Origin: an uncultured Nitrososphaerota archaeon
Lineage (GTDB): Archaea; Thermoproteota; EX4484-205; JAAOZP01
Length of the DNA: 64,000 bases
NCBI GenBank assembly: GCA_964635675.1
Contig: CAZWPT010000004.1
Span: forward strand, 4,744 to 68,743
Direction of reading: 5' to 3'
Shown here in pieces: positions 3,237 to 64,000 of the stretch. Position 1 is the stretch's first letter. Each line of letters begins with the position of its first letter. The position numbers and the translations under genes are program-made. The notes under the pieces were generated by a model. That model was not told the DNA's origin and searched no databases. It saw nothing but the letters and a program-made list of their open reading frames with translations.

Positions 3237-3413
3237 TACCCCTATGCCGGTGTATTTTCGCCAAATAAATCTAACTTGGGAAGTAAAAGGGGTTTGCATA
3301 GTCATCCGTGGGTTTATGAACCCATTTTGAAGCCTTGATGCTATGAAACGGATGTTTACATGCGTAAAGTTTAAATTTTGCAAATGTATAACACAAACGA
3401 AGGTGAAAACATT

Positions 3414-12872: not shown

Positions 12873-12878
12873 GATGCA

Positions 12879-14138: not shown

Positions 14139-14139
14139 A

Positions 14140-16131
14140 ATGAATGGCTTAATCGAAACGCTTAGACTCCGAAACCTGGAGCGTTACAGGAGTGTTCAGC
14201 TGGATTTCTCAGCTGGGCTTAACCTCATAAAAGGTAGGAATTCAACGGGTAAAACTACTCTGCTCAACGCATTGACGTTCGCGCTTTTCGGCGAAGTGCC
14301 GGAGGCTAGGCCGAAGCTACTGGTTTCAAAGCTGCCGGGCTCAGGGGAGATGAGTATCTACGTAAGGTTCAGGAGCCCGGTTAGCGGCCAGATTGTTGAA
14401 GTTGAGAGGAGGGGTGGTTTAGACAGGAACGGGGATTACAGGACAGGGGAAAGACTGCTCCGGATCGACGGTAAAAACGTGTCTCTGGAGAGCGAGGAGG
14501 ACTTGAGGAGCAGGATTACTGAACTTCTCGGGATGAGTTTAAGGAAGTTTATCAACCTGGTCTATATTAGGCAGGGTGGGTTAACCGAGATACTGGAGCC
14601 GCAGAGAGAACGCATGGATTCAGTACTGGGGATAACGCTGTTAAGAGAGCTGCGTGAACAGTTAGATGGAGCACGGAGAGAGCTCGAGAGGTTTAACGGG
14701 AAGGATGTTGCAACCGAGCTTCAGAATATTGAGGAACGGGTGCCGGAGCTCGATTCCAGCCTAAGACAGATGGATGAAGACATTGGCCAGTTGATTAGCG
14801 AGGTTCAGGATCTTGAAAACCTTTTGAAGAAGGCTGAATCAACAGAGTTAACCGAGCTTCTCAAATGCATTAAGAAGAGGGAGGAGATTGAGGAGGAGCT
14901 GAAGAAGATTTCTTCAAGGAGTCAAGAGCTTCTGGAGCATGCCGGCGTCTCTTCGATTGAGGAGTTGGAGGAAAAAATGAGTCTAAATGGTAAGGAGCTG
15001 GAAACGCTGAAAGCAGCGAGAAACAGTTTGAAGAAGGAGCTTGATGCATCAATGGAGAAATGGTTAAGCGTGAAAAGCCGTGTTGAAAACCTTGCGAGGC
15101 AAGTAAGGGAGCGCGAGTCTCTCGCTGGAAGCGGGGCTTCTAAATGCCCAACGTGCGGCCAAGACCTGCAACCCGCTGTAATCCAGAGGATTCTGGAGGA
15201 GGATCGCGGCTCGTTAGCCAGGGCTAGTCTCGAGGAGGCTGAGGCGAGGAAGGTTTACGAGATGAAAAACGTTGAGCTTCAAAAACTTGTTGAAAAAATA
15301 AACACTGCTGAAGGCGAGTATTCAAGGATGAGGGCCCTGAGAAACCGTCTAAAAGAGTATTTGGATTCCGCTGAAGCCCGCGTGAAAATAAGGAGTGAAA
15401 CCCTAGCTATGATAAAGGAGAAGCTAACAGTCCTTGAACTGCCTTTCACCCACGAGGATCCTGAACTGAAGCTGAAGCTAGCCCAGCAGCTCCCCCTCCA
15501 GCCAGAGGAGTTGGCCAAGAGGAGGAGTGAGCTTGCTGAGAAGAAGAAGATTTTAGAGAAGAAGAAGAGTATTAGAGCGGATACCAGTAAGAAACTAGAG
15601 GACTATAGGAGGCTGCTCAACGAGCTTAAAAGAAGGGTGGAGAAGGCTGGTCTCGCGCACAGGCTTTCTCAACTCTTCGACCAGGCTGTTGAAACTAGAA
15701 GGAGGGAACTGATAAAACGCATAGAGTTTCGAGCATTAGAATACTATAGGGCTATGACGGATCAGCATGTTTACGACGCTATAATCATAAACCCGGAGGA
15801 CTATTCTGTTTCAGTGCATCCGAAAGGATTGACAGATCCTATTCCTGCAAGCAGAGTTGGGGGAGGGCATCAAACTATTTTAGCCCTAGCCATACGCCTC
15901 GCGCTCCTCGATGCGCTAAACCTGAATTCACTGCTGATACTGGATGAACCAACCTACGGTGTTGACTCAGAAAACCTTCCCCAGGTTGCAAGCTACATAG
16001 GCGAAGCATCTAAGCAACTCTCTCAAATGATACTCGTAACCCACTACAATATTTGTGAGGAAGAAGCTTCAAACATTATAGAAGTAACTGTTCAAGAAGA
16101 CGGTTCTTCTAAGGCTGAGATTAAAACATAG
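14140..16131 (+). CDS. rad50: Rad50/SbcC SMC-like ATPase, short coiled coil
   Basis: Walker A GRNSTGKTT, Q-loop YIRQG, central zinc hook CPTCG, signature VGGGHQ, Walker B LILDEPT, H-loop VTH. GGTGG RBS before ATG 14140. Confidence 0.92.
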   Translation: MNGLIETLRLRNLERYRSVQLDFSAGLNLIKGRNSTGKTTLLNALTFALFGEVPEARPKLLVSKLPGSGEMSIYVRFRSPVSGQIVEVERRGGLDRNGDYRTGERLLRIDGKNVSLESEEDLRSRITELLGMSLRKFINLVYIRQGGLTEILEPQRERMDSVLGITLLRELREQLDGARRELERFNGKDVATELQNIEERVPELDSSLRQMDEDIGQLISEVQDLENLLKKAESTELTELLKCIKKREEIEEELKKISSRSQELLEHAGVSSIEELEEKMSLNGKELETLKAARNSLKKELDASMEKWLSVKSRVENLARQVRERESLAGSGASKCPTCGQDLQPAVIQRILEEDRGSLARASLEEAEARKVYEMKNVELQKLVEKINTAEGEYSRMRALRNRLKEYLDSAEARVKIRSETLAMIKEKLTVLELPFTHEDPELKLKLAQQLPLQPEELAKRRSELAEKKKILEKKKSIRADTSKKLEDYRRLLNELKRRVEKAGLAHRLSQLFDQAVETRRRELIKRIEFRALEYYRAMTDQHVYDAIIINPEDYSVSVHPKGLTDPIPASRVGGGHQTILALAIRLALLDALNLNSLLILDEPTYGVDSENLPQVASYIGEASKQLSQMILVTHYNICEEEASNIIEVTVQEDGSSKAEIKT

Positions 16132-48230: not shown

Positions 48231-50224
48231 GTGATGTTATCAAGAAGACAGGATGTTTGGAATCTAGTGAAAGATAGTTTTAATGAGAAGCTGCCCAGGC
48301 GTACCGCCATCCTTGTGAAGGAGAATGACTTCTCTATTTCCTTTGCATATCCTTCTGACTTCGGTTCTATCGGTTGGTTCCTAGACAACAGGGAAGAGAC
48401 AACTTATGAAGAAGCCCCGGTCGCTGCTCTAAAATTCGGAGAGTATAGTTTTCCGGATTTGTCAGGTAGGAGGCTATCTAGAAACGTTTTTCACTTTAGG
48501 ACGATGGAGTATCAACCGTCCCTCGTCAAAAGGAAAATTGTTTTCTCAAACGTTGGGATTGGGGCTACTGAACTGTTCGGCCAGTGTCCGAAAGGAGGAT
48601 CTTCTGGAGGATTACACTTGAAGCTAGGTGTCATCCGCCATTCTGCGTGAACAGGAAATTCTACACTATTGTCACTCTTGAATGTTCCTCAGCAAAGGTA
48701 AGCAAACACAGTTCTGGCAGTATTCTAAAAATCCATCTTGGGAAGAAAAGCTTGTTCATAGCCTCTGAGTCTAACCGATACGGTGTCTACTCGTGTATAG
48801 AGGAGTACCTTGACGACTTGGAGAAGGGTACTATTAATGCACGCAGGAAAACTGGGCGTCACGTTATTTTTGAAAAAGATGTTGCTTTGAAATCTGGAGG
48901 ACAGGTTAGCCTTCTGTTCGGCATAAGCTTCCAGTCACCCGACAAAGCAGCTGGAGCACTGAGACTGAAGAATCCTGTTTCAAGCATTAGGGTGAAGTGG
49001 AATAAATGGTTCAACTCTCTTCCAGCACCAAGCTTCGAAACAGAGGCAGATAGAAAGGCATATTATAAATGCTGGTGGATAGTCAGGCTAAACTATTATA
49101 GGCATCCAAGTCTAGGAAAAACCGTGCTCGAGGCTCTACCGGTTTACCGTGGCTATTGGCAATGGTCTCTTCCTGCTGTCGAATGGCATTCGATGCTTAA
49201 CCCCGAAATAGGACGTGTCTTTGTTAAAAACCTTCTAAACCTGTTTCTCAAACACCAGAGGGAAGATGGTTATGTTACACACGCGATATACCTAGTTGAG
49301 AAAACTCCGGGTGAAACATGGAGTAGTAGAAACATCATTCAGACTCCTCATCTCCCATGGGTCGCGTTGAGATACTACTATGCTACGAAAGACCTTAAAA
49401 GCATTAGAGCATGGTACCCTAAGCTGGTTAAGTATTACAACTATCTTAACGAGTCTCGGGATGCTGGGCTACTTAGGCTGGGCCTCTGGGCTATTCTCAC
49501 CTCTTTCGACACCGGGCTGGATACTTTCCCAGCGTTCCAGAAAGTGACCTATGGCGACTCTGGAATTAAAGAGGATTTCTGCTATCCTGCAATCTTTGCA
49601 GCTGAAAAATGCCGTTTTGAGCAGGCAATGGGCAGAATGTCCAGAATCCTTGAGAACGGTGAGGAAGATACTTGGTTTAGACTGGCTGAGGAAACCAGGC
49701 GTGCCATGGATCACATCCTCTGGGATGAAGACCTACACTGGTACGGTGTTCTTCACCAGGACGGTTCGCTGGACACTAGGATAGGTGTGGATGGGCTTTT
49801 CCCATTTGCATACGGACTGGTTGATCCGGAGAAGGCTCGACAAGCTAGAAAGAATTTTCTCAGGCTGATCGGCGACTACGGGGTTTTTACGCTCGCTCCT
49901 GGCCAGCCTGGTTTTGAGGAAGAAGTTTATTGGAGAGGTCCAGCATGGGCAAAATCGTGCTCTCTAGCAATGGCTGCAGCGCTCAACTACTATCCTGATC
50001 TTTTAAAGGCGGTAAAAGATTCGACAGTAAAGTTTCTCCTGAAGTATCCGAGCGTCTGGGAGTGTATGAGTGCTGCGACGGGAAATATTGCTCGCGGGGA
50101 TATTGGGATTATGGCTACGCCTGTCGTCTCTTCGAACGTGGGGGCTGGTGAAGCCATAGGCGCTCTTCTAACATACTATGGGAGGAACATGTTTTCAATA
50201 GAGCCTAAACGAGGTTCTTTTTGA
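48231..50224 (+). pseudogene. Frameshifted GH63/MGH1-like (alpha/alpha)6 glycoside hydrolase (ORFs 48231..48650 and 48584..50224)
   Basis: Overlapping ORFs offset by -1. The second frame opens at 48572. The downstream part has YRGYWQW, QTPH, DTGLD and YWRGPAW. May be a sequencing error rather than a true pseudogene. Confidence 0.65.
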
Positions 50225-50979
50225 TCTAAGCCTAGGAGGCTGCACGCATTCCTCCATAGTATTTTCTCAATGGTTCCCTCCGGCTTCTTAATAAGTTTAG
50301 TTTTTAAGATGGCACTCTGCAAGTATTTCAATGGAAACCCGGATCCGAAAACCACCCTAGAATCACCAACCTGTTCAATCAACCTGTCAATCTCGCCGAA
50401 AGCAGCATTCATCCTAGATATTTCGAAATACACGTTGGAATAATTGGTTAATGGGGAGTCGACGATCCTCCTTGCCTCTAGAACCACTATCTTTGTTTCC
50501 GGAGATTTCTCCGCAAGCTGTTTTAACTCGTCTAGACTAATATCTCTCGCCAAGTCCATCCAATGACGTCCCCTACCGTCTCTAAGCCTAACCGGTATCG
50601 AGACGACAAGATTCTTCTCAGAGGCTTTTTTAACAAGTCTTAAACAATCTTCATCCGTCAACGAATAGTTATGGTACTGCGGGTATAGCCTCAACCCTCT
50701 GAAACCGAGGCCGACGCATTCCTCTAAATCATTCTCCCAACCCGGGTATTTGGGGTTAAGAACAGCAAGCGGAACAAATCTTTCACCGTATTGTTCAACC
50801 TCCTCTAAGAGTTCATAATTCCCGTCGTGCGAATCCATGTAGAGCACAGAGTTGAGAGATGAGACTACTGCAATGCTTATCCTGTTCTTATCCATCCACT
50901 TTAAGGCTTCAAACGCTGTTCTAGCGCAAAACTTTCGGAATGGCCACTGCCCAAGATACATGTTGAAGTCTATAATCAT
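50176..50979 (-). CDS. Amidohydrolase family 2 protein
   Basis: IIDFNMY, GLRLYPQYH, VVFGSGFP. Several usual His ligands are replaced. Confidence 0.85.
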   Translation of the reverse strand: MIIDFNMYLGQWPFRKFCARTAFEALKWMDKNRISIAVVSSLNSVLYMDSHDGNYELLEEVEQYGERFVPLAVLNPKYPGWENDLEECVGLGFRGLRLYPQYHNYSLTDEDCLRLVKKASEKNLVVSIPVRLRDGRGRHWMDLARDISLDELKQLAEKSPETKIVVLEARRIVDSPLTNYSNVYFEISRMNAAFGEIDRLIEQVGDSRVVFGSGFPLKYLQSAILKTKLIKKPEGTIEKILWRNACSLLGLDQKEPRLGSIENMFLP

Positions 50980-51746
50980 TTAAACCTCGCCTCTAGGATC
51001 TGCCGCATGTTTTCACCAAATATAAGGCTCCTATCATGCTCACTTATTTCGGCGTCCAATATTTTACCAATTCCTTCTTCCATGCTTAAATCAGTGCCGA
51101 ATAGTAGTCTTTCCGCACCCAAGAGTTTAACTGCTTTCTCTATCATCCCGCAATCTATTACGCTGCCGCTCGTATCAACGTAAACGTTACGAGTGTTTCT
51201 CAAAACCTTCAAAGCCCACTCCCAGTCTCCCCCTCCACCAAGATGAGCCTCTATTATCACTGCTTTCGGAAACAGAGAGGCCAAGTAGGAGATGTCGCGA
51301 GCATTAGAAATATTCGGCTGCCTAGCAGCTTCAGCAGGATCTGTAAGATACCCTGCATGCTGCAGGATTGGAACCTTAAGCTCTATAGTCTTTTTAACAA
51401 TTGGGAAAACAATCGGATCGGAACATTTATACTGGTTGTACAGTTTTACGCCGATCATCCCTTCTTCAAGAATCCTCTTCTCAACCTCTTCAAGAGATTC
51501 CTGTTGATAACCTGGGTTAACGAAACAGTAACCGAGAATCTTATCAGGATATTCCTTCATCGCCTTAATCATCTCGTCATTACAGGTTTTAAACTCACTG
51601 GGTGTAGGCATACCTTCAACGAAGGGTATTGAGCAGCACAGTTTATCGATACCCAGTTTATCAGCAGCCTCTACGAGATTTTTCAACTCCACCTCGCATT
51701 TAAAGAACCTGCCGCTAATGTGAGAATGACAATCTATCTTCAACAT
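50976..51746 (-). CDS. Amidohydrolase family 2 protein
   Basis: IDCHSH, GVKLY, ILQHAG, AHLGGG, YVDTSG, LLFGTD. Confidence 0.92.
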   Translation of the reverse strand: MLKIDCHSHISGRFFKCEVELKNLVEAADKLGIDKLCCSIPFVEGMPTPSEFKTCNDEMIKAMKEYPDKILGYCFVNPGYQQESLEEVEKRILEEGMIGVKLYNQYKCSDPIVFPIVKKTIELKVPILQHAGYLTDPAEAARQPNISNARDISYLASLFPKAVIIEAHLGGGGDWEWALKVLRNTRNVYVDTSGSVIDCGMIEKAVKLLGAERLLFGTDLSMEEGIGKILDAEISEHDRSLIFGENMRQILEARFK

Positions 51747-51838
51747 TCAGCTGCTTGTTTTCTTCTTAGTGAGCTTAAAAATTTTAGCGTTCGCCAGCCG
51801 GGAAAAACATTTATGCTCGACGAGTTTTTTAAAGAAGC

Positions 51839-54028
51839 ATGGTTTCCTCGAACGATGAAAAGGAGGATCACGATATAATTCTAAGCAACGGTAAGGTTAA
51901 GGTGGTGTTCAACACTGAAAGCGGAGGGATAAGACAGATTCTAAACAAGACGGTTTCAACTACATATCTAAAACATTCCAACGACCAGCTGGTTTACATT
52001 TGGCTTCTTCAAAAAGGGAAGAAATCATCAGTCTACGCGAATGACGACGAGCCGTTTAGAGTTGTTTCATCTGGACCTGAAACCCTAAAGGGAATCCGTT
52101 TAAGCAATGATGGTTCACGTTCTTCAGTAGAGATCCTTCATAGGATTGAGTCAGTAGATGTTAAATGCAGTTTTATGCTTGAAGGCGAAAGTCAGCTTAT
52201 AAGCTGTGATGTTGAAGTGGACAACACTCTTAATCCAAGCTGTTCAGATGATGTTGTCGGAGTAGGCTTTCCACAGTTAAAAGGAATATGCATAGGCAAT
52301 TCTAGTGAAGACGATATACTGGTTAGGCCAAATCGTTTCGGAGAGAAAATCAAGAATCCTGTCGAGAAATGTGGGACCTACCATAGAACATTGCTTTACG
52401 GCGGCTTTGCTTCAATGATGTGGATGGATATTTATGATGAGAAAGCGGGCCTCTATATTGCTAGTTATGATAAGGAGTTGATACTTACTGCTTTAGAATC
52501 GATTCCTGACTGCTCAAGAGGGGCGATGAACCTTAGCATGAGGAAGTACGCATATGTTCCTGCTGGAAGCTCTTGGAGGTCAAGCCCGTTTGTAATAGGG
52601 GTGCATGAAGGAGATTGGCACTGGGCTGCCGACAGATATAGGGAATGGGCTGAGTCATGGATGATAAAGCCCAATATTCCTGAAAAACTGAAATGGAGCG
52701 ACGGATGGTATGGTGTGCATTTTAAGGCTGGGGGAGAGATAAAGTTCAAATTCAAGGATATTGAAGATTTTTTCAGGGATGCCCAATATCTCGGTTTAAA
52801 CCATGTTCAGCTATGGGGCCAGATGGTTGGAGACGGATGTTGCTACAGATTCTACTATCCTGATCCAAGACTGGGGACTGTTGAAGAGCTTAAGAAAGCA
52901 ATATCCTCAGTTAAAAGTAAAGGTGGTATAGTAGGCTTCTACTTCAACATTCAAGCATTCTCACCCTCCGTAAGAGAATATCTTTCTGCGAGAGGCATCA
53001 GGATTCCCGAATCCGAGAAGACCCCGGACTGGATGGGCGAGTTCAGGAATTACGCTCAAACGAACTTCGACGGGTCGACGACCGTGCAGTATCCTGGAAG
53101 AGAGTTTGAAAATGATGGTTTCAGAATAATGTGCACGTATTCTGAGGGATGGCAGAAATACTTGGTTCACTGGGTTGTGGAAAAATACTTGAAGGAGTAT
53201 GGTGCAGACTTCGCCTATATAGATCAAACTTTTTCCCCACCTGTTTCCTACTGTTTCAACTTTGCGCATGGTCATAAGCATCATGGTTGTTCAGCTCAAG
53301 GAAGAGTTAAGATAATACGGAGACTCTCTGAAGAAGGTAGGAAGCATAACCGAGAATTCTCACTGTGTATCGAGGGAAACGGGGATTCCGTGGGACAATA
53401 TTGCAGTCTTCATCTCTACACCAGTTTCTCAAGCCAAACCATGTATCCTGCCCCTGAAGTTTTTGCATACACCTTCCCAGAGTATATTATAATTGACGGC
53501 TTCGCTAACCTGCCCGTTGAGTGGATAGGCAAGTGCTACTATCCGGACATGGGTGGTGAAGTTGGCTTGGAAGACCTTATAAACAGGGTATACCTGCTCG
53601 GATTCAGGTTCGACGTGACACCACTTCCACTGGGATCAAGGATTAGCAGGGGTGAGCCGTTAACTGAGCATGTGAGAAGATTGATAGCTCTCAGGAAGAG
53701 GGTTAAATGGCTACAGTATGATTCAAGGTTCATGGATGACTTGGGATTAAAGTGTTACTCTGAGAAGGTGGTTGCGAAAGCGTTTAAAGGTTCTGATGGA
53801 AGAAGCTTGTTGATAAACATTATTGACTACAGGTCTGAGAAAAACAGTTTTCTAATAGAGGTTGACGCTGATTTCTATAGCTTTACTGGTGAAGTGGAAT
53901 GTAAACTCTACGCTGTTGACGGTCAGGATGCTGATCTAAATGCTAAGCTGGTACATGGAAAGCTGCTGGTTGAAATACCGTCTTTCAAAGGTAAGGTTGC
54001 AAGCATTATTCTGAAAAAACGTCAATAG
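51839..54028 (+). CDS. Large hypothetical GH-like protein (DUF6259-like)
   Basis: N-terminal beta-sandwich, GDWHWAADRYREW, TIM-barrel region with FAYIDQ, C-terminal beta domain. Confidence 0.7.
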   Translation: MVSSNDEKEDHDIILSNGKVKVVFNTESGGIRQILNKTVSTTYLKHSNDQLVYIWLLQKGKKSSVYANDDEPFRVVSSGPETLKGIRLSNDGSRSSVEILHRIESVDVKCSFMLEGESQLISCDVEVDNTLNPSCSDDVVGVGFPQLKGICIGNSSEDDILVRPNRFGEKIKNPVEKCGTYHRTLLYGGFASMMWMDIYDEKAGLYIASYDKELILTALESIPDCSRGAMNLSMRKYAYVPAGSSWRSSPFVIGVHEGDWHWAADRYREWAESWMIKPNIPEKLKWSDGWYGVHFKAGGEIKFKFKDIEDFFRDAQYLGLNHVQLWGQMVGDGCCYRFYYPDPRLGTVEELKKAISSVKSKGGIVGFYFNIQAFSPSVREYLSARGIRIPESEKTPDWMGEFRNYAQTNFDGSTTVQYPGREFENDGFRIMCTYSEGWQKYLVHWVVEKYLKEYGADFAYIDQTFSPPVSYCFNFAHGHKHHGCSAQGRVKIIRRLSEEGRKHNREFSLCIEGNGDSVGQYCSLHLYTSFSSQTMYPAPEVFAYTFPEYIIIDGFANLPVEWIGKCYYPDMGGEVGLEDLINRVYLLGFRFDVTPLPLGSRISRGEPLTEHVRRLIALRKRVKWLQYDSRFMDDLGLKCYSEKVVAKAFKGSDGRSLLINIIDYRSEKNSFLIEVDADFYSFTGEVECKLYAVDGQDADLNAKLVHGKLLVEIPSFKGKVASIILKKRQ

Positions 54029-54034
54029 TACGTG

Positions 54035-55372
54035 CTATGAATATTCGCTTATCTTCTGTATGTCCAAATGGTTTGCCACGTTTCTTATAGCATCGTCCAT
54101 GTTAATATACTTGAACTCTGCAAATCTTCCAACAAGCTCTACACCCATCCTGTTAAAGAAGGATCTTATTCTTTCAGCGCATTCTTGATAATTCGAATCT
54201 AGAATAGGATACGCATACTTGTGTTGAAAAACATTCCTACAGATAATCTTGTTCTTAGAAAGAATCTTAAGCCTATCGAGCTCATCAATCACTATGCTCG
54301 CAACCTCATCGCTATTAGTCTTAAGGAGAGGATCATCAGGCTTGACAGTTATCTCTGCAAGGATGGACGACTTGCCTTCAGGAGCGTTTTCTGGACTGAA
54401 GTTGGAAGGAAAACTAACCCTATGCGGGTGAATATCCCTGTCAGGAATGTACATCCAGCTTAAACCCTTAACGTTAAGCTCCTCCAGCCCTATTGCAACC
54501 GTCACGAGAGAGTTGAACCTTAATCTCTCAACATCCCTCTTCACATCCTGGGGAACATCGAATATTCTGACAGCATCATGTAAAGGAATTGTAGAGATGA
54601 TTCGGTCGAAAACCTTCTCTACACGACCGTTTGAAACAACCCATTCACCTGATTCTTTTTCGACACGCCTTACCTCGAAGCCTGTTAAAACATCGCCTTG
54701 CATCCTGTTTCTCAAAGATTCTATGAGTGCTTGAATCCCTCCCTTCCTAGGATAGTGGAAGAAAAGCTGATGAACATATCCCTCAGAACCTATTCCAAGA
54801 GAAGCCTTAACAACATCCATTACGCTAGGATTAGGAATTCTGCCTATAAAACCGAGAGACATATCATCTATGCTCATTTTCCAGATTTTCTCATTATATG
54901 GGATCAAGTATTTCTCGGAAATAGCGCTTCCAAGAGAACTGTAGAAAAATTCTCTAAGGTTTCCGGCATCGCGTTTTCTCCGCATCCTGGCATAGAGAAA
55001 ATGCAGGAGGCACGAAAGGTTTTCCAGAAATGGTAAGTCAGATAAACCGTTTTCAAAAGGATATTTTACAAGCCTGCCTTTATAGAGTATTGCAGTATTC
55101 CTCTTGTTCTCAATCCTGTTATTTCCTAAAAGGCTAAGCATAAAGCTTAGAACGTCAGTGTCCTTTGAGAAAATTATGTGTGAACCGCCAGTGTCGAAAG
55201 TAAACCCCTCTTCAACAATGCTTCTCATCAAACCACCGGGAGCAACGTTTTTTTCCAGCACAGTAGTGTTGAAACCAATTCTGGAGGAAAAGTAGGCATA
55301 AGTCATTCCGGAGAGCCCGCCACCTAGAATACCAATTCTGACACCTTCATGTTTAGCTGCCTTAACGCTCAT
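54035..55372 (-). CDS. FAD-dependent oxidoreductase, UDP-galactopyranose mutase/protoporphyrinogen oxidase-like
   Basis: GGGLSG, GGL, FDTGGSHIIFS, KYPFEN, AYP, GRFAEFKYINMD. Likely start MSVK at 55372. Confidence 0.85.
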   Translation of the reverse strand: MSVKAAKHEGVRIGILGGGLSGMTYAYFSSRIGFNTTVLEKNVAPGGLMRSIVEEGFTFDTGGSHIIFSKDTDVLSFMLSLLGNNRIENKRNTAILYKGRLVKYPFENGLSDLPFLENLSCLLHFLYARMRRKRDAGNLREFFYSSLGSAISEKYLIPYNEKIWKMSIDDMSLGFIGRIPNPSVMDVVKASLGIGSEGYVHQLFFHYPRKGGIQALIESLRNRMQGDVLTGFEVRRVEKESGEWVVSNGRVEKVFDRIISTIPLHDAVRIFDVPQDVKRDVERLRFNSLVTVAIGLEELNVKGLSWMYIPDRDIHPHRVSFPSNFSPENAPEGKSSILAEITVKPDDPLLKTNSDEVASIVIDELDRLKILSKNKIICRNVFQHKYAYPILDSNYQECAERIRSFFNRMGVELVGRFAEFKYINMDDAIRNVANHLDIQKISEYS

Positions 55373-55394
55373 CTTTACCATTCCATCGTTATCT

Positions 55395-55727
55395 TTAAAC
55401 GTAATAGCCTGAGTGAGGCTCTCTACGCTGGCTTGGTTGAGGTGGATACTGATCCTTAATCTCTCCAATAATTTTTTCCAGCTCATTCAAGTGTTGATTC
55501 AACCATTTAGTAAGCTGTTTTAATGCAACTGGTGTAAGAATTACCTCAACCTTAATCTCCCTCGTAACAGTAGGAGGTTGAGTCGGCTCCTCAGGATGAT
55601 TCACAACATCGTTAAAGAAAGATACCCGAAAGTCGATGCCATTAAAGCCGCCCAGCGCCCCTGTTGCATATATCCTCTTGAAGTCCTCAGCGTACTTAAT
55701 CTTAACCGGTATTCTTATCTCGGTCAT
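55395..55727 (-). CDS. DUF3467-like small protein
   Basis: YATGALGG..DFRVSF, VEVILTP.ALKQL..WL..HL..LE. Confidence 0.75.
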   Translation of the reverse strand: MTEIRIPVKIKYAEDFKRIYATGALGGFNGIDFRVSFFNDVVNHPEEPTQPPTVTREIKVEVILTPVALKQLTKWLNQHLNELEKIIGEIKDQYPPQPSQRREPHSGYYV

Positions 55728-55837
55728 CGTCGATCATATCTGACAACGTTGAGGCTTATAAGAATTTTTACATGATCCATGTCTTGCGGGCGCTATAGCT
55801 TTAACGTGCTCCAGTCTTTCTTCTTCAACCTCAACCA

Positions 55838-55999
55838 TTAGCGCGCGCTTTCCTCGGGATTTCTGGAGGAAACTTTATTAAAATCCAATTCCCATCCTTC
55901 TAGAATCGCGTGCTCTCGTTTTGAAAAATTAACTCCTCTTTCCCTCATCTGATTAGGGTCCATGTTAGAGCCATAGGCGAAATACTTCAGATTCCTCAC
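55838..55999 (-). pseudogene. Gamma-glutamylcyclotransferase (AIG2-like) N-terminal fragment
   Basis: Hand translation: VRNLKYFAYGSNMDPNQMRERGVNFSKREHAILEGWELDFNK...stop after 53 aa. Not in the ORF track. Confidence 0.8.
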
Positions 56000-56312
56000 C
56001 AATTAACTATATTCCATGAATCTTTATAAGCCTTTTAAAAAGCTCATAAAGGCATGCGCCATTTTTCCAGCATCCTTTCAAACCCTCTAGAATCAAAACT
56101 TAAAATACGACGAATATTTATGCATTCTCTCTTTTCGGCAACTCAAATAACGAGCGTTAAGCAGCATTAATTGAAATCAGGCTTGGAATGCCCCAAATTT
56201 CGGAAATCAAAACTCTGTTATCCTTATTCTGCACTTTGAGCCTCTTCAGCAAGTTTTTGTTATCCGAGCAGACTATAACTTTAGCGCGCTTAAGGTTTAG
56301 GGATACATGCTT

Positions 56313-56516
56313 TTACTCTTCGCCTATGAATCCTTCTTCAATCAGGATTCGCCTACAATCCTTGCAGAGGGTTCTCAGCCACTTCGCGAGCAGCTTTCTC
56401 TCCTGCTCCGCGGACTCTATCTTCACGCTGAAGATCGTGTCGAACTTCCTCCTACACTCTTTGCACACAAGATCATACTCTGAGGAGCACATTCCTTTGT
56501 AATAGCGAGAAGGCAT
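56313..56516 (-). CDS. Small CxxC..CxxC putative zinc-binding protein
   Basis: CKEC and CKDC pairs in a 67-aa ORF. Confidence 0.5.
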   Translation of the reverse strand: MPSRYYKGMCSSEYDLVCKECRRKFDTIFSVKIESAEQERKLLAKWLRTLCKDCRRILIEEGFIGEE

Positions 56517-56977
56517 GATTTAAGCGTTTGTTGTCGAAAACAACAACATGTTACAATGAGCATCATAAGCCCCTTTTTCAACGCGGTTTGGATTGAAACT
56601 TAGTATAGTCATTGTGAAGAGACGATCCGGGGAAATGCCTTCAAGCATGATAGCCTGAAAGGGAGTTTAAACATGTTTTTCGAAGGATACCGTATCCAGC
56701 CAGTTGATGCTCATTCACACAACCCTCCCTCTCAAATGTTTTTCCGTACTAAACCCTCGGTCTTAAGCATGTGCTCACTTTCACCCCACCCTCTCCCTCA
56801 AGCGTTTGCCTCATCCTACTTTTTAAAGAAGGGCTTTTTCACAGGAATGTTGAGGGTGTGGACATGCAACAGCCAAAAAGCTTGGGGAGAGGGGGTAACC
56901 AGGTGAGGCGGGTCCTAGCCTTAAAAGATTCGGCAGCCGGAAAGCCTTATCTAAAGCCGCTACATACCGTATTCAGA

Positions 56978-58123
56978 ATGGTCGGGTACATCAGGCTTAT
57001 AAGCCTGGTTGTTCTACTCATCCTTCTTTCAGGTTCTCTTAAGGCTTCCGCAACACCCTTCGAGCTTGCTTACGATGATGGTGGTGCTGACTACGGCTGG
57101 TCGGACTTCTACCCCTATGCTGCAGCGGTAAGGTTCTCCCTGCCCTCTGCGAGCTGGAGGATAACGGGGATAAGGCTTCACGCCACATGCATCCTTAAGG
57201 GTTCTCAAGTATTCTACGTTCAGATATGGGATGCTGGTTTAAACACTGTTTACTGGTCAGCGTTCCTCCCCAGCAGTGTCTTCAAGAACGCTACGCTAGA
57301 GTGGTACACCATCAGGCTTCCAAACGTCGTCGTAAAAGGCGTGTTCTACGTCGTCATCGTCCCGATGCTCACCCTCGACGGCTCTCAGCTATGGATAAGC
57401 GTCGACGATGATCCTCCTTTTTCAAACAACAGCTTCACAGTGAACGTTGACGACCATGCGATCCATGCTTCCCTAAACGCCACTGGCAAGAGGCCGGTAG
57501 ACTTCATGATTAGGGTCGTGGGGGAGCCCGTTCCAACGCTTCCCGAGCTTAAACCGTCTTCAATAGAGTTCAGAGAGGATGAGACCATCGTGTTTTTCAC
57601 ATACCCGGGTGAATCGCTGAGCTTCGGCGCCAGGCTTGTTAAGCCAGACGGGTCTTCGGTTGAGGAGAACGCAACCAGGGTTGGCAACAGCCTCATCGTA
57701 AGGGTTAGGGATGAAGGCTTGCTTAACGTCTTCGTGGTCACGCCCAGCTATGAGACGGTCGGCTCCAGCGTAAGGCTTGAAACCGGCCTGAGGAGCCTTT
57801 ACAGGGATTTATTGGCCAACTACACCGTTCTTAAGCACAGTATCGAGGACATGCTTAGGCAAATCGATTCTTTAAAGAAGGATAACGGGGAACTCAGGCT
57901 CCAGCTCAGCCAGAGCCAAGCCCTTATAAGGATTCAGAACGAGAGGATCAACGAGCTCCTAACTAACATTTCTTCTCTGAGGAGTGAGTTGGAGAAAGTT
58001 GGGGCTGAGGCCTCTGGGCTCAGGGGCGAGAACGCTCTACTCAAAATAGGACTCGCCTTAGCGATAATCGTTTCCCTCTTTCTAGGCTTCATCGAGGTGA
58101 GAAGAAGGTGGAGGAGAAAGTAA
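56978..58123 (+). CDS. Exported, C-terminally anchored coiled-coil protein (accessory to downstream giant protein)
   Basis: Signal peptide ending ASA, beta domain ELAYDDG..AVRF, heptad coiled coil, C-terminal TM plus RRRWRRK. Likely start ATG 56978. Confidence 0.75.
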   Translation: MVGYIRLISLVVLLILLSGSLKASATPFELAYDDGGADYGWSDFYPYAAAVRFSLPSASWRITGIRLHATCILKGSQVFYVQIWDAGLNTVYWSAFLPSSVFKNATLEWYTIRLPNVVVKGVFYVVIVPMLTLDGSQLWISVDDDPPFSNNSFTVNVDDHAIHASLNATGKRPVDFMIRVVGEPVPTLPELKPSSIEFREDETIVFFTYPGESLSFGARLVKPDGSSVEENATRVGNSLIVRVRDEGLLNVFVVTPSYETVGSSVRLETGLRSLYRDLLANYTVLKHSIEDMLRQIDSLKKDNGELRLQLSQSQALIRIQNERINELLTNISSLRSELEKVGAEASGLRGENALLKIGLALAIIVSLFLGFIEVRRRWRRK

Positions 58124-61100
58124 CCGGGATACTGTTAATCCTCCTCACTCTAAGCCTTGAGTTCAACAGCATCCTTCTCGTAAGGTTCATCAGGGTCTCC
58201 GCGCAGCCAGAGGAATTCGCGAAGAAGCTTGAAGAATACCTTGGTAAAGCCATACCGGATGACCTTCTCGCCGAGGAGTGTGAGTACGTTGTTCCAGAGG
58301 GCTTTAACAACACCTTTGCCGAAAGGCTCTGGAAAGACCTAAGCTTCTACGTTAGTGCAGGATGTACCACCGAAGAGCTAAGGGACGAGCTTAAGAAGGT
58401 ATATGGAAATTCTTCACTGGTTAACGCAACGCTTTCAAACGGAGCCATGGTGACACTGAACATTAGCGGCGTAGCTGTTGAAAGAGAATGGGATGGGAGC
58501 GTCAGCATAAAGATACCCGTGGCCTCAAAGAACAACCTGAGCTACTCGCATTACAACTTCACTAAGCAAGCTGGGTTCTACGAGGCCTGGAACAAGACTC
58601 TGGTCAGGGAATACAGGGTTTGGAGGAGGGAGCAGGGATGGTACACTTATGTTTTCGAGGACCTTGAATCTAGCAGGAGCTTCACCATAGTCTCAAGGAT
58701 CTGGGGTGAAGCGTCTGTGGTTGAGGAAGCATGGCTCGGAGGCTTGAGGAAGCTGGGCGGAGGAGCTTGGAACGAGCCAGTCCGTTATCTCCCATCCTTC
58801 GAGTACACGTTGTGGGGCTGGATGCGCGTGAAAGGGCCTGTCGTAGCGGTGCCCGGCCATTATGAGGACGTTAGGATCATCGTTCCACAGCAGGAGAGAA
58901 GCTTCAAAGTATTGTTCCCAGCCTACGACCCCTTTTGGTATGAGGGCTGGACCATAAGCATCAACTTTTCCTCAACAAGCCTAAGCATTGGCGAAACCCT
59001 TGAGATAAGCTACCTTGCTGAATACTGCTCGCCCTTCGGCGGAGAGCCAGAGCCGTTAAACGCTACGTTAACGCTCAACGCTCCAGACTCTTTCCAACCC
59101 TTGGACAGCGTTGAGAGAAGGCTTGATGAAACCCACATCGCCGGGGTGTTCAGGCTCAAAGCAGCTAAGCCCGGGACCTACAATATTACTCTCAGGCTCG
59201 ATGGGAACGCTGTGTTCTCAAACACCCTCAGCAACATGGAGACGTATACGGTTCAGGTTGTTTCCCCGCCGGCCCCGTCGCTAGGCATCGAGATAGTTAG
59301 CAGGGACACCTCTGTTCTGAAGCACGCCAGGCTCATATTGAGGCTGAGGAATAATGGCGGCGGGGCTGCGAGAAACATAACCATGGTGATAACCGGCAGC
59401 CACTTGGAGAGCGTGGTCAGAAGCGTTGGAAGCGTTGAGGCGGGGGAATCCAGGGATGTTGAGCTCAGCCTGAGGCTCCTCCAGCCCTCCTCCATGGCTA
59501 GGATAAGGGTCGCTTACAGCGATGACGACGGCAACCCGTATCTCGTCGGGCTTGAGACGATGGTTTCGACAGAGACCTTCTGGGTTCCAGAGCATTTCGA
59601 AACCTACACCGTCACAGTGCCTGAGCACGAGGAAACCCACAGAGTCTTCGTCCCTGGGTTTGAGAGTGCTACTCACATAAGGCTCTACGCTCTCTGGGAC
59701 GAGAGGATAATCGGCGAAGCAATATTCCACGGTGAAAAGCTTGGAAGACAAGTATACGACGTGGAGTACCTTCAATGGCTCCTCTACAACCGGACCGCGT
59801 TGAGCCTTGGCCTAGTGCCAATACCCGTGCCAGGGCTTGGTGTTGAGCTAAGCATCAGCACAGGCAGAGAGGCTTTGACTGAAGCAGGAGTCAAGATGAT
59901 GATAAAGAGCATAGAGCCACACTACGAATACATCGGAATCCTTAAGGAGGACGATGCATTAAGGCTTGTCAACGCGGATAAAGAATCCCTGAGGAACGGG
60001 AATGTTTCCTCGGACTTCAAGATTGAGCCGTTGAAGCCATACTGGGTCAAGGGCAAGCCCATAGTGTTAAACTCGACGCAGTTCGCCCTCTACCAAGCTA
60101 CGATGGAGGGTTTGAAGAAGAAAAACCCCGACTTGGATTATGAGTTCAGGGAGACCATTGCTGACGTTAGGACTAGGGTTGGGGAAGCTGAGCTAGGATA
60201 TATTGTTCTTATCTCCCACCCGTTGAAGGTCGTTGGGGAAGGACCCCTTAAAACAGTCAGGGTGAGGAACTTCGCAGCAATAGGCTTCGAATACACGGTT
60301 AACGTTGAAACATCCCAGCTAACATTTCTCGGGAATGCGCCTGGCGAGAAGGCTTGGAAAAAACTGTATCTCGACGGGAAGGAGGACGCTGTCCTGCTCT
60401 CATCCTCGTTAGACGCTCGCGAGCAGGAGGTTAAGGTAAACCTTACTCTTAATGGCAGGCTCGTCGCAAAAACAATTTTCAGGCTTGAGCCCGAGTCCTC
60501 GGTGTTCTGGAGGGGCTTCTGGGAAGGCTTCAGGGGCGAGCTTTGGAGGATAGTCCTCACCGGGGCGGTGATGGTTGTCCTCACAGTGGCTAGCAAGGGC
60601 ACTGTTGGAGCAATGGCATTGAAGCTGAGCGAGCTAGCATTCCTCTCAACAATGATCCTGTTTAACGCGGTCACCCAGTATGCGGAGCTAGGCCAAGTGT
60701 TTTCAAGGGCCTTCACGCTGAGGGAGGTGGGCAATGTTATCCGCGACGAAGCAAGGCAGTTCAGCAACATAGGCTACCACGGGACGGCTAGTTTCTTGAA
60801 TGATGCGGCGGACGAGATTACGCACGTCGTAAAATCAGTCGAGGCCAACTTCTCCTCCATCCTTGACTTCCTCTCAAGGGTAGGCACTGACATGAGCCTG
60901 CAGGAGTGGGAAGTATTGCTGGGGCTTAGAAAAGCGGAGCCTTATGAGAACGGCAGGGTGTGGGGCAAGGTTACCGGCATCGCGGTAAGCCTCGCAGTAT
61001 TCGTCGCAGGATTCTGCAACCTAGCTGCCAGCGGAGCTACTCCAGCGTCCCTAGGGGCTAAGGCCAAGGCTGTTCTGCACGGCCTGTATAACTGGCTAAC

Positions 61101-63465
61101 CCCGGCGATGACCGACGCCATCCACGTGGCTAGGAACGTGCCTAAGTTGGCGAAGGGCTTCGGAATGCTCGTATCGACAATCAGCAGGATGAAGAAACTG
61201 GGCATCCCAGTCATCAAAGCGTTGAAGATGGATGCGGAGGGCGCGATCGACCTAGCCGGCATCTTCGGAAAGGTCTTGGACGCAGCGGGAGAGAGGAAGA
61301 TCAGCGACGAAGCCGTCCAAGCCATAAGGGAGCTATGCGCAAGGGCAACTGAACTTGGGGAAGAAGAAGTCAAGAAGCTAGCGGGAAGCATCGACACCCT
61401 GCTCTCAAAGAACACGAAGTTCACCGACGGGTTCGCAACCTGGGCCCGGAAGGCAAACCCAAGCGTGGAATGGGTGGTTAAGACCACGGGGAAGCTCAGT
61501 AGCCTTGATGCCAATGAACTTGAGGGCCTGGGTAAAGCGTTAGCAAGAATAGGAGATAGCTTCGGACTAAAAATATTCGATACTTACTTCTTGGCCCTTG
61601 AATCGAAGCAGTACGGTAAAGGCATCGCAGACGCATTCGTCGAGGCGGTTTCGAAGAATTTAAACTTATTCAATGACTTCGTCCGGGCAATAGAAGAGGA
61701 ATATCTAATATACTTTGAAAAGGCTCCAAGCACTTATGAGGTTCCTATTTCAGGAGACCAGAGCAAGATCCAAGGGAAGGTAGTTTACGTGTACGTATTG
61801 GATCGAAATACAAAGGATATCGTAGCAGAGGGTCCGAGAAAGGTCAAGCAACCCGCCCCAAGTGAAGAACCTCAAAAGAACTTTGCATTCCCAGATAGCA
61901 ACATAAAGCATGGTGATGAATATCTAATCCTGACAAGGGGTTTCACAGCCGAGGATTTCTATAACAAGTATGACGTAAAAGGCAGGCTCGTAATGGAAGG
62001 TGGGAATGTATACTATAGGGATTCCAACGGCAAGGTCCTTAAGCAGCTCGGTCCGGGTACCTTAGATGGATATAGAGAGAGGGTATGGGTAGACTTCATA
62101 TATAAGGACCTCACTAAGGTGTCTAAACCAGAAGATGCACGCGAGTTTAGACTTCGCGTATCCAGTTCCGGAGGGCTGAAATTGGTATATCCCTCTCCTG
62201 AATATGAAGGTTGTCCTCTAATGGGAGCGGAGCTGAAGTCCATCAAGGATGATTCTGGCAACGTTGTGGCTGAGCTGTTGTTCCTGCGGGTTACGGAGGA
62301 AAGTAGAGTCATACACCTCTTGAGCAGGAACATTCCACAGGCACAGATGTTATGCTTAATCGACGCTGAGAATGCCCTTGGGTTTAAGATCGGGCAAGAG
62401 ACGCTGAAGATCAACGGATTCCTTGAGAAGATTCTCGATCCCGATGTTTACAGCAAGCTCCTGATGGACCTTGACAACGGTAAGGCAGCAGTTGCAGCGT
62501 TTTTCGAGACCTACGAGGGGAAGGAAGCTAAGTGGACGGGTTCCTCTCGTATGGAACTTTACATTCCACAGGAGGCAACTAAGGTATCAAAGTATTACAT
62601 CGTCTGGGCGAACGGCATGGAGCAAAGGGTTGACAGGACCACTTTCAAGTTCTCGGACCAAGGCGTGCTGATCAGCGGACCCGAAGGGACTAAATTGCTA
62701 CAGGTTGACTATGGATTCAAGGAACCTCGCGGGAAGGAAATCTCACTCGTTATGGGCTTTCCGTTTAGGGATACCAGAGAAATAGGCTTCGTGATGGACG
62801 TAGATAAAGATGGAAACCTAAAGTTTGATGTCAAGCTAAGGAAGATAGATGAGGGAGAGCTTAAGAAGAGCTGGAGGATAGCTGGATGCGAGTATCAGAA
62901 GACCGAGTACACTTTGAAGATAGATGGCGAAGACGTCCAGCTTAAGGAGGTTTTAGTCATCTATAGGGATGATGGAGGGAAGGAGATAATAGGTCTTGCC
63001 AGGCCGATTCCAGGAAAAATAGATACTGAGCATGTCATAGCTGTGATACATGGCGAGGATTACATTGAGAAGATGGGGGGCAAGGTAATTGGGTGCGAGA
63101 TCCTAGAACTAGATGGAGCTCGAAGAATAGATATTCTTGCAGAAATAAATGGCAGGAAAGCCATCGTTGAGGCTAAGACGGGAATAGAGAGTCCGCTCAG
63201 TAAGGGTGCACGTGAGCAACCTGAAAAAGATATGTTGCTCCTCCTCGGTAAGGGTAAAGAGAAGGACTATGAGAAAGCGTATTACTTCTTCAGCAAGAAA
63301 CCTTCAAGTGAGGGAGCAAGAGAATACCTTAAAATTATAAGGGAGGTTTATGTTAAATATTGTAAGGAGTATCCAGAGCTAGAGAACAGGGTCTTCGTTA
63401 TCATTGAAAATGGAAGCCCGGTATTACCGACGGATCCCTTTTTAGATTCATACGTAAATCCGTAG
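58108..63465 (+). CDS. Giant exported protein with Ig/CARDB-like domains and C-terminal PD-(D/E)XK nuclease-like domain (putative polymorphic toxin)
   Basis: N-terminal hydrophobic signal, CARDB-like NNGGGAARNI..GSVEAGES, hydrophobic helices at aa about 812-860 and 952-990, C-terminal RIDILAEINGRKAIVEAK (D1675, E1688, K1690). GAGGTGA RBS; overlaps the upstream gene by 16 nt. Confidence 0.75.
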   Translation: MEEKVTGILLILLTLSLEFNSILLVRFIRVSAQPEEFAKKLEEYLGKAIPDDLLAEECEYVVPEGFNNTFAERLWKDLSFYVSAGCTTEELRDELKKVYGNSSLVNATLSNGAMVTLNISGVAVEREWDGSVSIKIPVASKNNLSYSHYNFTKQAGFYEAWNKTLVREYRVWRREQGWYTYVFEDLESSRSFTIVSRIWGEASVVEEAWLGGLRKLGGGAWNEPVRYLPSFEYTLWGWMRVKGPVVAVPGHYEDVRIIVPQQERSFKVLFPAYDPFWYEGWTISINFSSTSLSIGETLEISYLAEYCSPFGGEPEPLNATLTLNAPDSFQPLDSVERRLDETHIAGVFRLKAAKPGTYNITLRLDGNAVFSNTLSNMETYTVQVVSPPAPSLGIEIVSRDTSVLKHARLILRLRNNGGGAARNITMVITGSHLESVVRSVGSVEAGESRDVELSLRLLQPSSMARIRVAYSDDDGNPYLVGLETMVSTETFWVPEHFETYTVTVPEHEETHRVFVPGFESATHIRLYALWDERIIGEAIFHGEKLGRQVYDVEYLQWLLYNRTALSLGLVPIPVPGLGVELSISTGREALTEAGVKMMIKSIEPHYEYIGILKEDDALRLVNADKESLRNGNVSSDFKIEPLKPYWVKGKPIVLNSTQFALYQATMEGLKKKNPDLDYEFRETIADVRTRVGEAELGYIVLISHPLKVVGEGPLKTVRVRNFAAIGFEYTVNVETSQLTFLGNAPGEKAWKKLYLDGKEDAVLLSSSLDAREQEVKVNLTLNGRLVAKTIFRLEPESSVFWRGFWEGFRGELWRIVLTGAVMVVLTVASKGTVGAMALKLSELAFLSTMILFNAVTQYAELGQVFSRAFTLREVGNVIRDEARQFSNIGYHGTASFLNDAADEITHVVKSVEANFSSILDFLSRVGTDMSLQEWEVLLGLRKAEPYENGRVWGKVTGIAVSLAVFVAGFCNLAASGATPASLGAKAKAVLHGLYNWLTPAMTDAIHVARNVPKLAKGFGMLVSTISRMKKLGIPVIKALKMDAEGAIDLAGIFGKVLDAAGERKISDEAVQAIRELCARATELGEEEVKKLAGSIDTLLSKNTKFTDGFATWARKANPSVEWVVKTTGKLSSLDANELEGLGKALARIGDSFGLKIFDTYFLALESKQYGKGIADAFVEAVSKNLNLFNDFVRAIEEEYLIYFEKAPSTYEVPISGDQSKIQGKVVYVYVLDRNTKDIVAEGPRKVKQPAPSEEPQKNFAFPDSNIKHGDEYLILTRGFTAEDFYNKYDVKGRLVMEGGNVYYRDSNGKVLKQLGPGTLDGYRERVWVDFIYKDLTKVSKPEDAREFRLRVSSSGGLKLVYPSPEYEGCPLMGAELKSIKDDSGNVVAELLFLRVTEESRVIHLLSRNIPQAQMLCLIDAENALGFKIGQETLKINGFLEKILDPDVYSKLLMDLDNGKAAVAAFFETYEGKEAKWTGSSRMELYIPQEATKVSKYYIVWANGMEQRVDRTTFKFSDQGVLISGPEGTKLLQVDYGFKEPRGKEISLVMGFPFRDTREIGFVMDVDKDGNLKFDVKLRKIDEGELKKSWRIAGCEYQKTEYTLKIDGEDVQLKEVLVIYRDDGGKEIIGLARPIPGKIDTEHVIAVIHGEDYIEKMGGKVIGCEILELDGARRIDILAEINGRKAIVEAKTGIESPLSKGAREQPEKDMLLLLGKGKEKDYEKAYYFFSKKPSSEGAREYLKIIREVYVKYCKEYPELENRVFVIIENGSPVLPTDPFLDSYVNP

Positions 63466-63540
63466 GAGAATGAGCTTGGCTTCCCTCCTTCACGTAAGCT
63501 TATATGGGTTGGAAAGGTTGTAAAACGTGAGGTAGCGAAA

Positions 63541-64000
63541 ATGGTAGAGAGACATATGTTGATTTGGGTTCCCTCAAGGGTTCGGGGTAAAAAGAGGAAA
63601 ATGGTGGAGATGGGGTTAGAGGAGCTATGGGAAAAGAAAAAGGCTTCTAGTATTGTCCTTAGTGACAGTTGGAAGTTTTACACCACGGGTGACTCTTGGC
63701 TTATGATGCAAAGAGGCCTCACGTACCTACCTGAAATAATAGACTCAACGACGTTCGCGTTCTACAGGCTTTCAGATCATTACAACGTCCCCGTCGAGCG
63801 TGGGGCATATCTCTTCATGAGGAACGAGAATATGGTGAAGGAAGGATTGAGGGAGATGTATCCACATGCTGCAAAGCTGGCGGAAAAAGTGGATGTAAGA
63901 GTTAAAATGATTAGGAACATCGGCTATGGTAAATATTATTTCTGTTGGCCCGTCGAGGTCGTTGGCCTGGAGGAGGTTAGAGAGGAAGTCAAAAGGCTGC
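63541..64000 (+). CDS. Hypothetical protein, candidate immunity protein (3'-truncated by window edge)
   Basis: Hand translation: MVERHMLIWVPSRVRGKKRKMVEMGLEELWEKKKASSIVLSDSWKFY...EEVKRL, no stop up to 64000. GAGGT RBS before 63541; alternative start at 63601. Confidence 0.75.
   Translation, partial: MVERHMLIWVPSRVRGKKRKMVEMGLEELWEKKKASSIVLSDSWKFYTTGDSWLMMQRGLTYLPEIIDSTTFAFYRLSDHYNVPVERGAYLFMRNENMVKEGLREMYPHAAKLAEKVDVRVKMIRNIGYGKYYFCWPVEVVGLEEVREEVKRL

Follow-up and report, generated by a model that had tools for sequence, protein, structure and literature searches.

What is encoded by the open reading frame (ORF) that begins directly behind a giant gene with a nuclease-like end and runs off the edge of a 64,000-nt stretch of archaeal DNA? 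The stretch, called the window here at its full length, comes from an uncultured Nitrososphaerota archaeon (GenBank assembly GCA_964635675.1, contig CAZWPT010000004.1, positions 4,744 to 68,743). A first-pass annotation of the window, made from the letters alone, considered the ORF as a candidate immunity gene; we call it IMM. The genomic context, the sequence motifs and the predicted structures suggest that IMM is the cognate immunity protein of the nuclease tip of the giant surface protein, with a probability of about 0.7. All coordinates of the genes and signals described below for this locus refer to the plus strand of the window.

The TAG stop codon of the 1785-aa giant gene corresponds to the nucleotides 63463–63465, and the ATG of IMM to 63541–63543, with exactly 75 nt between them. 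From this ATG, 153 codons without a stop continue to the edge of the window (63541–64000, 460 nt). The extension proposed in the first-pass annotation is provided by L001, a 19-kb hot-spring metagenome contig which is identical to the window, overlaps it from 60402, and continues about 10 kb beyond its edge. The complete IMM has 237 aa (L001 3140–3853), of which the window contains 153 codons, and its stop is at the window-equivalent position 64254. A search of 5.8 billion proteins retrieved the window's own IMM product in full (P0001). The gene caller places the start at Met6 (63556, 232 aa). The first ATG at 63541 is more likely the start, because N-termini of the forms MVERHM, MVEMH, and MEAH are kept in L003, L009, and L005, and the family consensus begins with M-x-E-x-x-hydrophobic.

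The motif GAGGT, similar to a Shine-Dalgarno sequence, is seen at 63529–63533, 7 nt ahead of the ATG. Further upstream, AAGCTTATAT resembles a B recognition element (BRE)/TATA element. It is located at 63496–63505, about 36–45 nt before the ATG. In alignment A9 of five intergenic regions upstream of IMM genes, AA.CTTA is invariant, and the mean column identity is 54%. AAGCTTATAT is a probable archaeal promoter of IMM itself, so the production of IMM would be separate from that of the toxin. The sequencing runs carrying the window sequence are DNA metagenomes from hot springs, and there are no RNA runs among them. The first-pass annotation had described an open frame of at least 153 codons that starts 75 nt past the toxin stop, carries a GAGGT ribosome-binding site, and runs off the window; all of these features are confirmed.

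The properties of the IMM protein are those of a cytoplasmic protein. Its N-terminus, MVERHMLIWVPSRVRGKKRK, is not hydrophobic, and neither a signal peptide nor a transmembrane segment is found, the highest 19-residue Kyte-Doolittle mean being 0.46. N-glycosylation sequons (N-x-S/T) are seen in IMM proteins at the chance rate (14 observed and 14.7 expected), as expected of a cytoplasmic protein. IMM belongs to no family of Pfam, NCBIfam, PADLOC, or PHROGs. These results agree with the first reading of the sequence, which had seen no signal peptide and no recognisable family. A PADLOC match of IMM to Csx23 (12.9 bits) and weak matches of single family members to FecR_C and FlhC were rejected as chance.

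A word-indexed protein search found just two other clusters of IMM proteins, with 60% and 48% identity. When 1.84 billion cluster representatives were searched exhaustively with a profile, 48 proteins scored at E ≤ 1e-3, and 19 of these at E ≤ 1e-10. The members are mostly 190–240 aa long, in addition to some shorter fragments. They share the motifs KGLKYIPxI, WPxEVLDLKEVxDE, LSKDxPxDR, and EIHxKYPxxKFWF, and three residues, W131, E144, and D161, are invariant. The AlphaFold2 (AF2) model of IMM, based on a 26-sequence alignment, has a predicted local distance difference test score (pLDDT) of 90.6 and a predicted template-modelling score (pTM) of 0.88. The predicted fold is mixed alpha/beta: two central strands join those at the N- and C-terminus in a small sheet, which packs against long helices. 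Foldseek comparison of this model with PDB and BFVD gave nothing meaningful (best E 1.7, template-modelling (TM) score ≤ 0.21). Sequence-profile matches in PDB to KMP-11 and MCM2 (E 0.017–0.08) fall on a helical stretch and were rejected as unrelated. Compared with PDB and BFVD, the IMM family and its predicted fold appear undescribed. The identical contig, the homologues with conserved motifs, and the confident fold rule out a chance ORF. A housekeeping gene is also ruled out, as IMM is lineage-restricted, multi-copy, and hypervariable.

The domain directly upstream of IMM is the tail of the giant protein (aa about 1636–1785, 63013–63462). It resembles PD-(D/E)xK nucleases in alignment, in predicted topology, and in Foldseek and profile matches. 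In alignment A7, the residues H1642 (63031), E1664 (63097), D1675 (63130), E1688 (63169), and K1690 (63175), that is, H, E, D, and ExK, are invariant in 13 tails which are 16–62% identical to that of the window. The AF2 model of the tail, based on five sequences, is of medium confidence (pLDDT 75, pTM 0.70). It opens with a beta-hairpin, after which the order is alpha-beta-beta-beta-alpha-beta-alpha-beta. The first three core strands (74–83, 86–95, and 98–105), behind the helix 55–70, carry E, D, and ExK. The alignment and the model thus agree with the definition of the PD-(D/E)xK fold, an alpha-beta-beta-beta-alpha-beta core whose strands 1–3 carry E...D...ExK.

The nearest solved relatives of the tail are XisH and NucS (PDB 2okf, 2inb, and 2vld), which have the same topology of the catalytic core, at marginal similarity. 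The top Foldseek matches are two XisH-family proteins (probability 0.95 and 0.90, E 0.02–0.03, TM score 0.33–0.47), and the best PDB profile matches are NucS (E 0.088) followed by the XisH entry 2inb (E 0.2). Unlike the tail, XisH and NucS are free-standing cytoplasmic proteins; they are not toxin tips and have no IMM-like partner.

In Pfam, the tail of L046 reaches 23.9 bits (E 5e-5) on Tox-REase-7 (PF15649), of which the gathering cut-off is 25. Other members of the tail family show weak matches to Tox-REase-3 and PDDEXK_1/2/10, below the gathering scores, and the window's own tail has no Pfam match, Tox-REase-7 included. The motif pattern of the tail resembles the signature of Tox-REase-7, which is GxxxE, IxD, ExK, and Q (PMC3482391). 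The tail could be considered as at most a distant relative of Tox-REase-7, and it falls within no named family. A word-indexed search with the tail alignment found 2 proteins; this index misses such divergent sequences, and scans of loci and local hidden Markov models (HMMs) were used. The PD-(D/E)xK fold predicted for the tail is well supported. With the catalytic E, D, and ExK intact here, the tail would be an active nuclease. The first-pass annotation placed the ORF directly after a nuclease domain. The position is right, while the nuclease nature is supported by the invariant residues, the AF2 model, and the Foldseek and profile matches rather than proven.

Is the association between IMM and the tail specific? 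Scans of one genome per species and of Joint Genome Institute (JGI) metagenomes recovered about 60 loci, many of which are short metagenome contigs and some of which are duplicates of each other. Two local HMMs, one for the IMM family and one for the last 200 residues of the giant protein, were applied to every locus retrieved. Solid IMM genes preceded by 250 nt or more of sequence were counted, with duplicates removed by eye; 32 of these 51 have the tail domain or a 3' remnant of it directly upstream on the same strand. The remaining IMM genes are mostly downstream members of IMM tandems or solitary copies. All of the close homologues (L002–L009 and L028) are located 65–220 nt downstream of a homologue of the giant protein's C-terminus. 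Homologues of the giant protein directly precede IMM in L013, L015, L016, L018, L020, L023, L028, L033, L045, and L046. Among the distant relatives, the start of IMM often overlaps or abuts the stop of the giant gene.

Several relatives contain arrays, in which the giant gene and its IMM gene are followed by two or three further units of a tail remnant and an IMM gene (L033, L010/L032, L035, L016, and L018). The remnants begin at about positions 104–143 of the tail profile, at or past ExK, which leaves them without the E and D of the catalytic site; those of L033 and L018 are 66–92% identical to the matching end of the main gene. Array IMM genes show no truncation, and they are just 39–57% identical among themselves. 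This is the pattern that would be left by new tip-plus-immunity cassettes displacing old ones, with the old immunity genes kept. Pairs of a free-standing tail and IMM are also seen, on the minus strand of L010, in L021, and in L041/P0053. The first-pass annotation suggested that further orphan pairs may follow; this is correct for the relatives and not for the window locus, where L001 shows no further cassette downstream and the next genes encode a GFO/IDH/MocA oxidoreductase, a serpin, and a C25 peptidase.

The arrays bear on the possibility that IMM is an accessory factor to the tail: a chaperone, adaptor, or activator with which the tail is folded, exported, processed, or loaded, comparable to the Eag/DUF1795- or DUF4123-type adaptors. 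The strict adjacency, the co-divergence of the two partners in sequence and charge, and the size of IMM (about 200–240 aa), larger than many immunity proteins, speak for such a role. The strong motifs seen throughout the family also suggest a conserved interface or activity. Bacterial adaptors are, however, normally encoded upstream of the effector and are not kept after its loss. Intact IMM genes are still found downstream of dead remnants or on their own, and the conserved 450-aa gene upstream of the giant gene, described below, is a better accessory candidate. An accessory role is considered quite improbable.

The distribution and divergence of IMM point in the same direction as an immunity function. 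All genome matches are archaeal metagenome-assembled genomes (MAGs), which are labelled Brockarchaeota, Thermoproteota, Crenarchaeota, Thaumarchaeota, or Nitrososphaerota, and several of them have more than one locus of the family. The window is chromosomal and contains the NurA-HerA-Mre11-Rad50 operon (10039–16131), typical of thermophilic archaea. The HerA of the window is 92–97% identical to the HerA of exactly those MAGs which carry the IMM family. Because of this, the family is confined to one narrow Brockarchaeota-type lineage, and the MAGs with differing phylum labels are evidently one lineage labelled inconsistently. Between the same genomes, IMM is only 25–60% identical and the tail 16–62%. 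IMM diverges faster than its tail: compared with the window pair, the identities of IMM and the tail are 58% and 62% in L003, 48% and 55% in L005, and 34% and 44% in L028.

The charges of the two partners vary together. The tail is usually acidic, and IMM is neutral to basic. L017 has a basic tail and an acidic IMM, and the least acidic tail is found with the most acidic IMM in L015. Among 17 pairs, which are related sequences and few in number, the net charges of tail and IMM are anti-correlated (Spearman −0.63, permutation P 0.004). Such an anti-correlation would be expected if the two partners shared an interface and evolved in compensation there.

It could also be that IMM is unrelated to the giant protein and that the genes just travel together on a variable island, possibly a mobile element. 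The loci are rearranged, as seen for P0054, in which an ATPase fragment is joined to the tail; genes of a second family, of tail sequence EKIEFLKEDFPEMFK, turn up in them repeatedly; and no flank synteny is seen between genomes, no DNA match being found outside the module when the window locus was compared with the loci of relatives. Against a mere co-travel, the association is specific to the last 50–200 residues of one domain family, with overlaps of stop and start in many loci. The anti-correlation of charges points to a physical relationship, and no integrase or transposase is consistently nearby. We regard co-travelling as very improbable. The adjacency, the arrays, the divergence, and the charges together support what the first-pass annotation had argued from position and cytoplasmic character, namely that IMM fits an immunity protein.

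How could the tail reach another cell? The giant gene (58108–63465) encodes an N-terminal signal or anchor, a sequon-rich ectodomain of about 780 residues (about aa 30–800), transmembrane segments, a C-terminal half of about 800 residues almost without sequons, and the nuclease-like tail. The hydrophobic region (aa about 810–860 and 951–979, 60535–61044) divides the sequon-rich half from the sequon-free half. The homologues reach 1830 aa. No RHS/YD, filamentous-haemagglutinin, or other known stalk, pre-toxin, or secretion domain was recognised in the giant protein, and Pfam gave no Ig match and just a chance-level match to CARDB. The carrier is unlike the known stalks.

The sequons were counted in eight divergent homologues (window, L013, L015, L016, L020, L023, L028, and L052), which are related sequences and small in number. 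The parts before the transmembrane region show about 3-fold sequon enrichment over shuffled controls. The halves after it contain only 1 sequon in all eight proteins, against 18.2 expected. The enzymes encoded in the window, used as cytoplasmic controls, have sequons at expectation. The depletion below chance suggests selection against glycosylation in the C-terminal half. It fits a polypeptide which would cross the membrane and yet stay unmodified.

The same architecture allows a different interpretation, which is the main rival of an immunity function. IMM might act as the antitoxin, or a regulator, of a defence nuclease which is anchored in the membrane and works in cis. The ectodomain would sense a virus or a surface event, the tail in the cytoplasm would kill or arrest its own cell (abortive infection), and IMM would be the brake until the trigger comes. 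With the transmembrane segments separating the ectodomain from the C-terminal half, the tail could be located in the cytoplasm, as IMM is. The free-standing pairs of tail and IMM have the size of toxin-antitoxin pairs, and the tail is conserved, not swapped. This interpretation accounts for the transmembrane architecture. It accounts poorly for the arrays of truncated tails with intact, diverged IMM genes and for the solitary IMM genes, which are a signature of immunity to kin toxins; a single self-inhibitor would not yield them. The sub-chance frequency of sequons in the C-terminal half is unexpected for a resident cytoplasmic domain, and no match was found in PADLOC. A self-directed defence nuclease therefore appears unlikely, and the accessory role and the co-travel of unrelated genes are less likely still.

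Under the immunity function, the giant protein's C-terminal half would leave the cell and be passed on to its neighbours. IMM in the cytoplasm would most likely bind and block the PD-(D/E)xK tail, and the binding would be partly electrostatic. IMM would be made independently of the toxin, from its own promoter. Relatives might gather old IMM genes to remain immune to the toxins of their kin. The whole would be an archaeal system similar to polymorphic toxins and to contact-dependent inhibition.

A third gene may be involved. The 450-aa gene (56771–58123) overlaps the start of the giant gene, and its product has a signal peptide, a sequon-rich and beta-rich ectodomain, a coiled coil, and a C-terminal transmembrane anchor; it belongs to no Pfam family. 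It is seen directly upstream of homologues of the giant gene in L013, L023, and L045, and it adjoins an orphan module in L005. Because of this conserved position, it probably opens a module of three genes, which encode the 450-aa protein, the giant protein, and IMM. A bolder speculation is that the three genes are a self-contained archaeal machine for contact-dependent inhibition, operating without a secretion system of the bacterial type. The giant protein would be held by its transmembrane segments, its sequon-free half of about 800 residues would be threaded into the neighbour, and the tip would cut nucleic acid unless the matching IMM is there. Such a machine is conceivable, although we consider it doubtful.

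Several facts weigh against the immunity function of IMM. The assignment of the tail as a nuclease comes from sub-threshold matches and a model of medium confidence (pLDDT 75), and its acidity (pI about 5–6) is unusual for a DNase toxin. The binding of IMM to the tail and the neutralisation of the tail are predicted from context. The invariant W131, E144, and D161, together with the strong motifs, could mark an activity of IMM beyond simple binding. The tails found all fall in a single family. Among close relatives, no other part of the giant protein is as well conserved as the tail (55–73% identity), and the distant homologues are about 20–35% identical along the whole length, with no sharp junction before the tail. 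These sequences do not show the classic pattern of a constant stalk with swapped, unrelated tips. The topology is ambiguous: either one or three transmembrane segments would place the tail in the cytoplasm. Besides, we know of no archaeal route by which such a toxin would be delivered.

Comparison with known systems may clarify what the module is. Its toxin-like domain is the last ~150 aa of an exported-type protein of 1785 aa, and a small gene on the same strand is located directly 3' of the tip (75 nt in the window; 65–220 nt or overlapping in homologues). Displaced C-terminal cassettes with their own IMM genes are seen in relatives, although none is present at the window locus. These are characters of polymorphic toxins. 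A constant N-terminal part with unrelated, exchanged tips is not seen, and diversification occurs within one tail family only. For this reason, the module is considered as a variant, not a classical member, of the polymorphic toxins.

The pairs of colicin E2/E7/E8/E9 DNases with Im proteins, and the single-type CdiA-CT/CdiI pairs, consist of one nuclease family and one immunity family. As in the module here, specificity there arises via divergence within both families, and immunity genes are kept in tandem. The E colicins are different in having HNH nucleases instead of the PD-(D/E)xK domain seen here, and the fold of IMM is different from that of Im and larger. The translocation and receptor domains of colicins are not in the giant protein. 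The combination of an acidic tail with a neutral to basic IMM is the reverse of the charges of colicin DNases and Im.

Tips with the restriction-endonuclease fold and accompanying immunity genes (Tox-REase-1 to -10) are well known in bacteria (Zhang et al. 2012, PMC3482391). In these systems, as here, a large surface or secreted protein ends with a PD-(D/E)xK domain containing E, D, ExK, and Q. They also share a small leaderless downstream gene, arrays of orphan tips with immunity genes, solitary immunity genes, and fast divergence between close relatives (PMC3482391). The partners of Tox-REase-7, HEAT repeats and Imm23, are unrelated to IMM, which matches neither a Pfam Imm family nor a solved fold. 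The module is also distinct from the Tox-REase systems in its single toxin family, its sub-threshold tail, the lack of known stalk, pre-toxin, or secretion domains, and its archaeal host.

Apart from some methanogens and haloarchaea, archaea generally lack polymorphic toxin systems (PMC3482391), and the predicted archaeal ones had no experimental characterisation as of 2021 (PMC8416519). An archaeal system similar in appearance is VARTIG of Thermococcales, whose organisation has been likened to polymorphic toxin systems (PMC8416519). VARTIG is also lineage-restricted and hypervariable, and in both cases variable small genes come after a very large surface protein. The core of VARTIG is formed by hypervariable Ig domains, to which the giant protein shows no match, and the word "nuclease" is nowhere in the text of that paper (PMC8416519). 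The giant protein, unlike VARTIG, has a nuclease-like end domain and a dedicated partner family. No paper tying Brockarchaeota to a polymorphic toxin system was found in the literature covered, to which the archaeal survey of Makarova et al. 2019 (mBio) did not belong.

The host is a TACK-related lineage, for which, to our knowledge, no interference competition system has been known. The locus provides a compact candidate pair of toxin and immunity from an uncultured hot-spring lineage, a nuclease-like domain of about 150–200 aa and a partner of 237 aa. If IMM is indeed an immunity protein, it represents a new immunity family and probably a new interface between a nuclease and its inhibitor, and kin-directed warfare would be shaping genomes whose housekeeping genes are about 95% identical. 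A C-terminal half free of sequons may be a simple sequence signature of exported, unglycosylated archaeal effectors. If the three genes were a contact-dependent machine, both its route of toxin delivery and its immunity fold would be ones not described before. If the defence nuclease were the right answer instead, it would be a new defence system in which a transmembrane sensor is combined with a nuclease.

Some further observations concern the history and variation of these loci. The GC content of the giant gene is 0.52–0.53 (58000–62000) vs 0.42–0.48 in the metabolic genes just upstream (50000–58000), suggesting that the module has a history unlike that of the upstream genes. In runs X1 and X2 of the source metagenome, the region 56958–61400, which corresponds to the upstream gene and the N-terminal two-thirds of the giant gene, is assembled in many short variant contigs at a depth of 100–220. 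In the same runs, the tail, IMM, and flanks (61387–64000) are on single clean contigs at a depth of about 55. The fragmented assembly is due to co-existing strain variants or to paralogues of the ectodomain.

P0054, from a Logan contig, is a protein of 238 aa in which an N-terminal archaeal AAA ATPase fragment of about 130 residues (Pfam nSTAND1/Arch_ATPase/AAA_16) is fused to the C-terminal part of a tail. The junction is exactly at the catalytic D ("..KWLDIVAEI.."), and the tail part is identical to P0005. P0054 is either a recombination product or an assembly chimera. In L006, a 45-aa ORF (2389–2526) is located between the tail and IMM. The same locus contains a second, very divergent IMM paralogue (3371–4021, 31% identity), with no tail remnant in between.

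The second gene family mentioned above encodes proteins of about 400 aa ending with ...KLPKFPLEKIEFLKEDFPEMFK, and has no Pfam family. Full genes and fragments of it are seen in L005 (3967–5151 and 5607–5816), L052 (4533–5762), and L009 (233–469, minus strand). In L052 it is located between the giant gene and IMM, and the fragment in L009 abuts a truncated tail. This family could be another cassette or a recombination partner. Finally, in low-depth (2–3x) contigs of the 2025 hot-spring metagenomes X3 and X4, position 62956 is joined to 63923 via CGCGC. This junction would correspond to a candidate variant in which IMM lacks its first ~127 codons and the tail its nuclease core.

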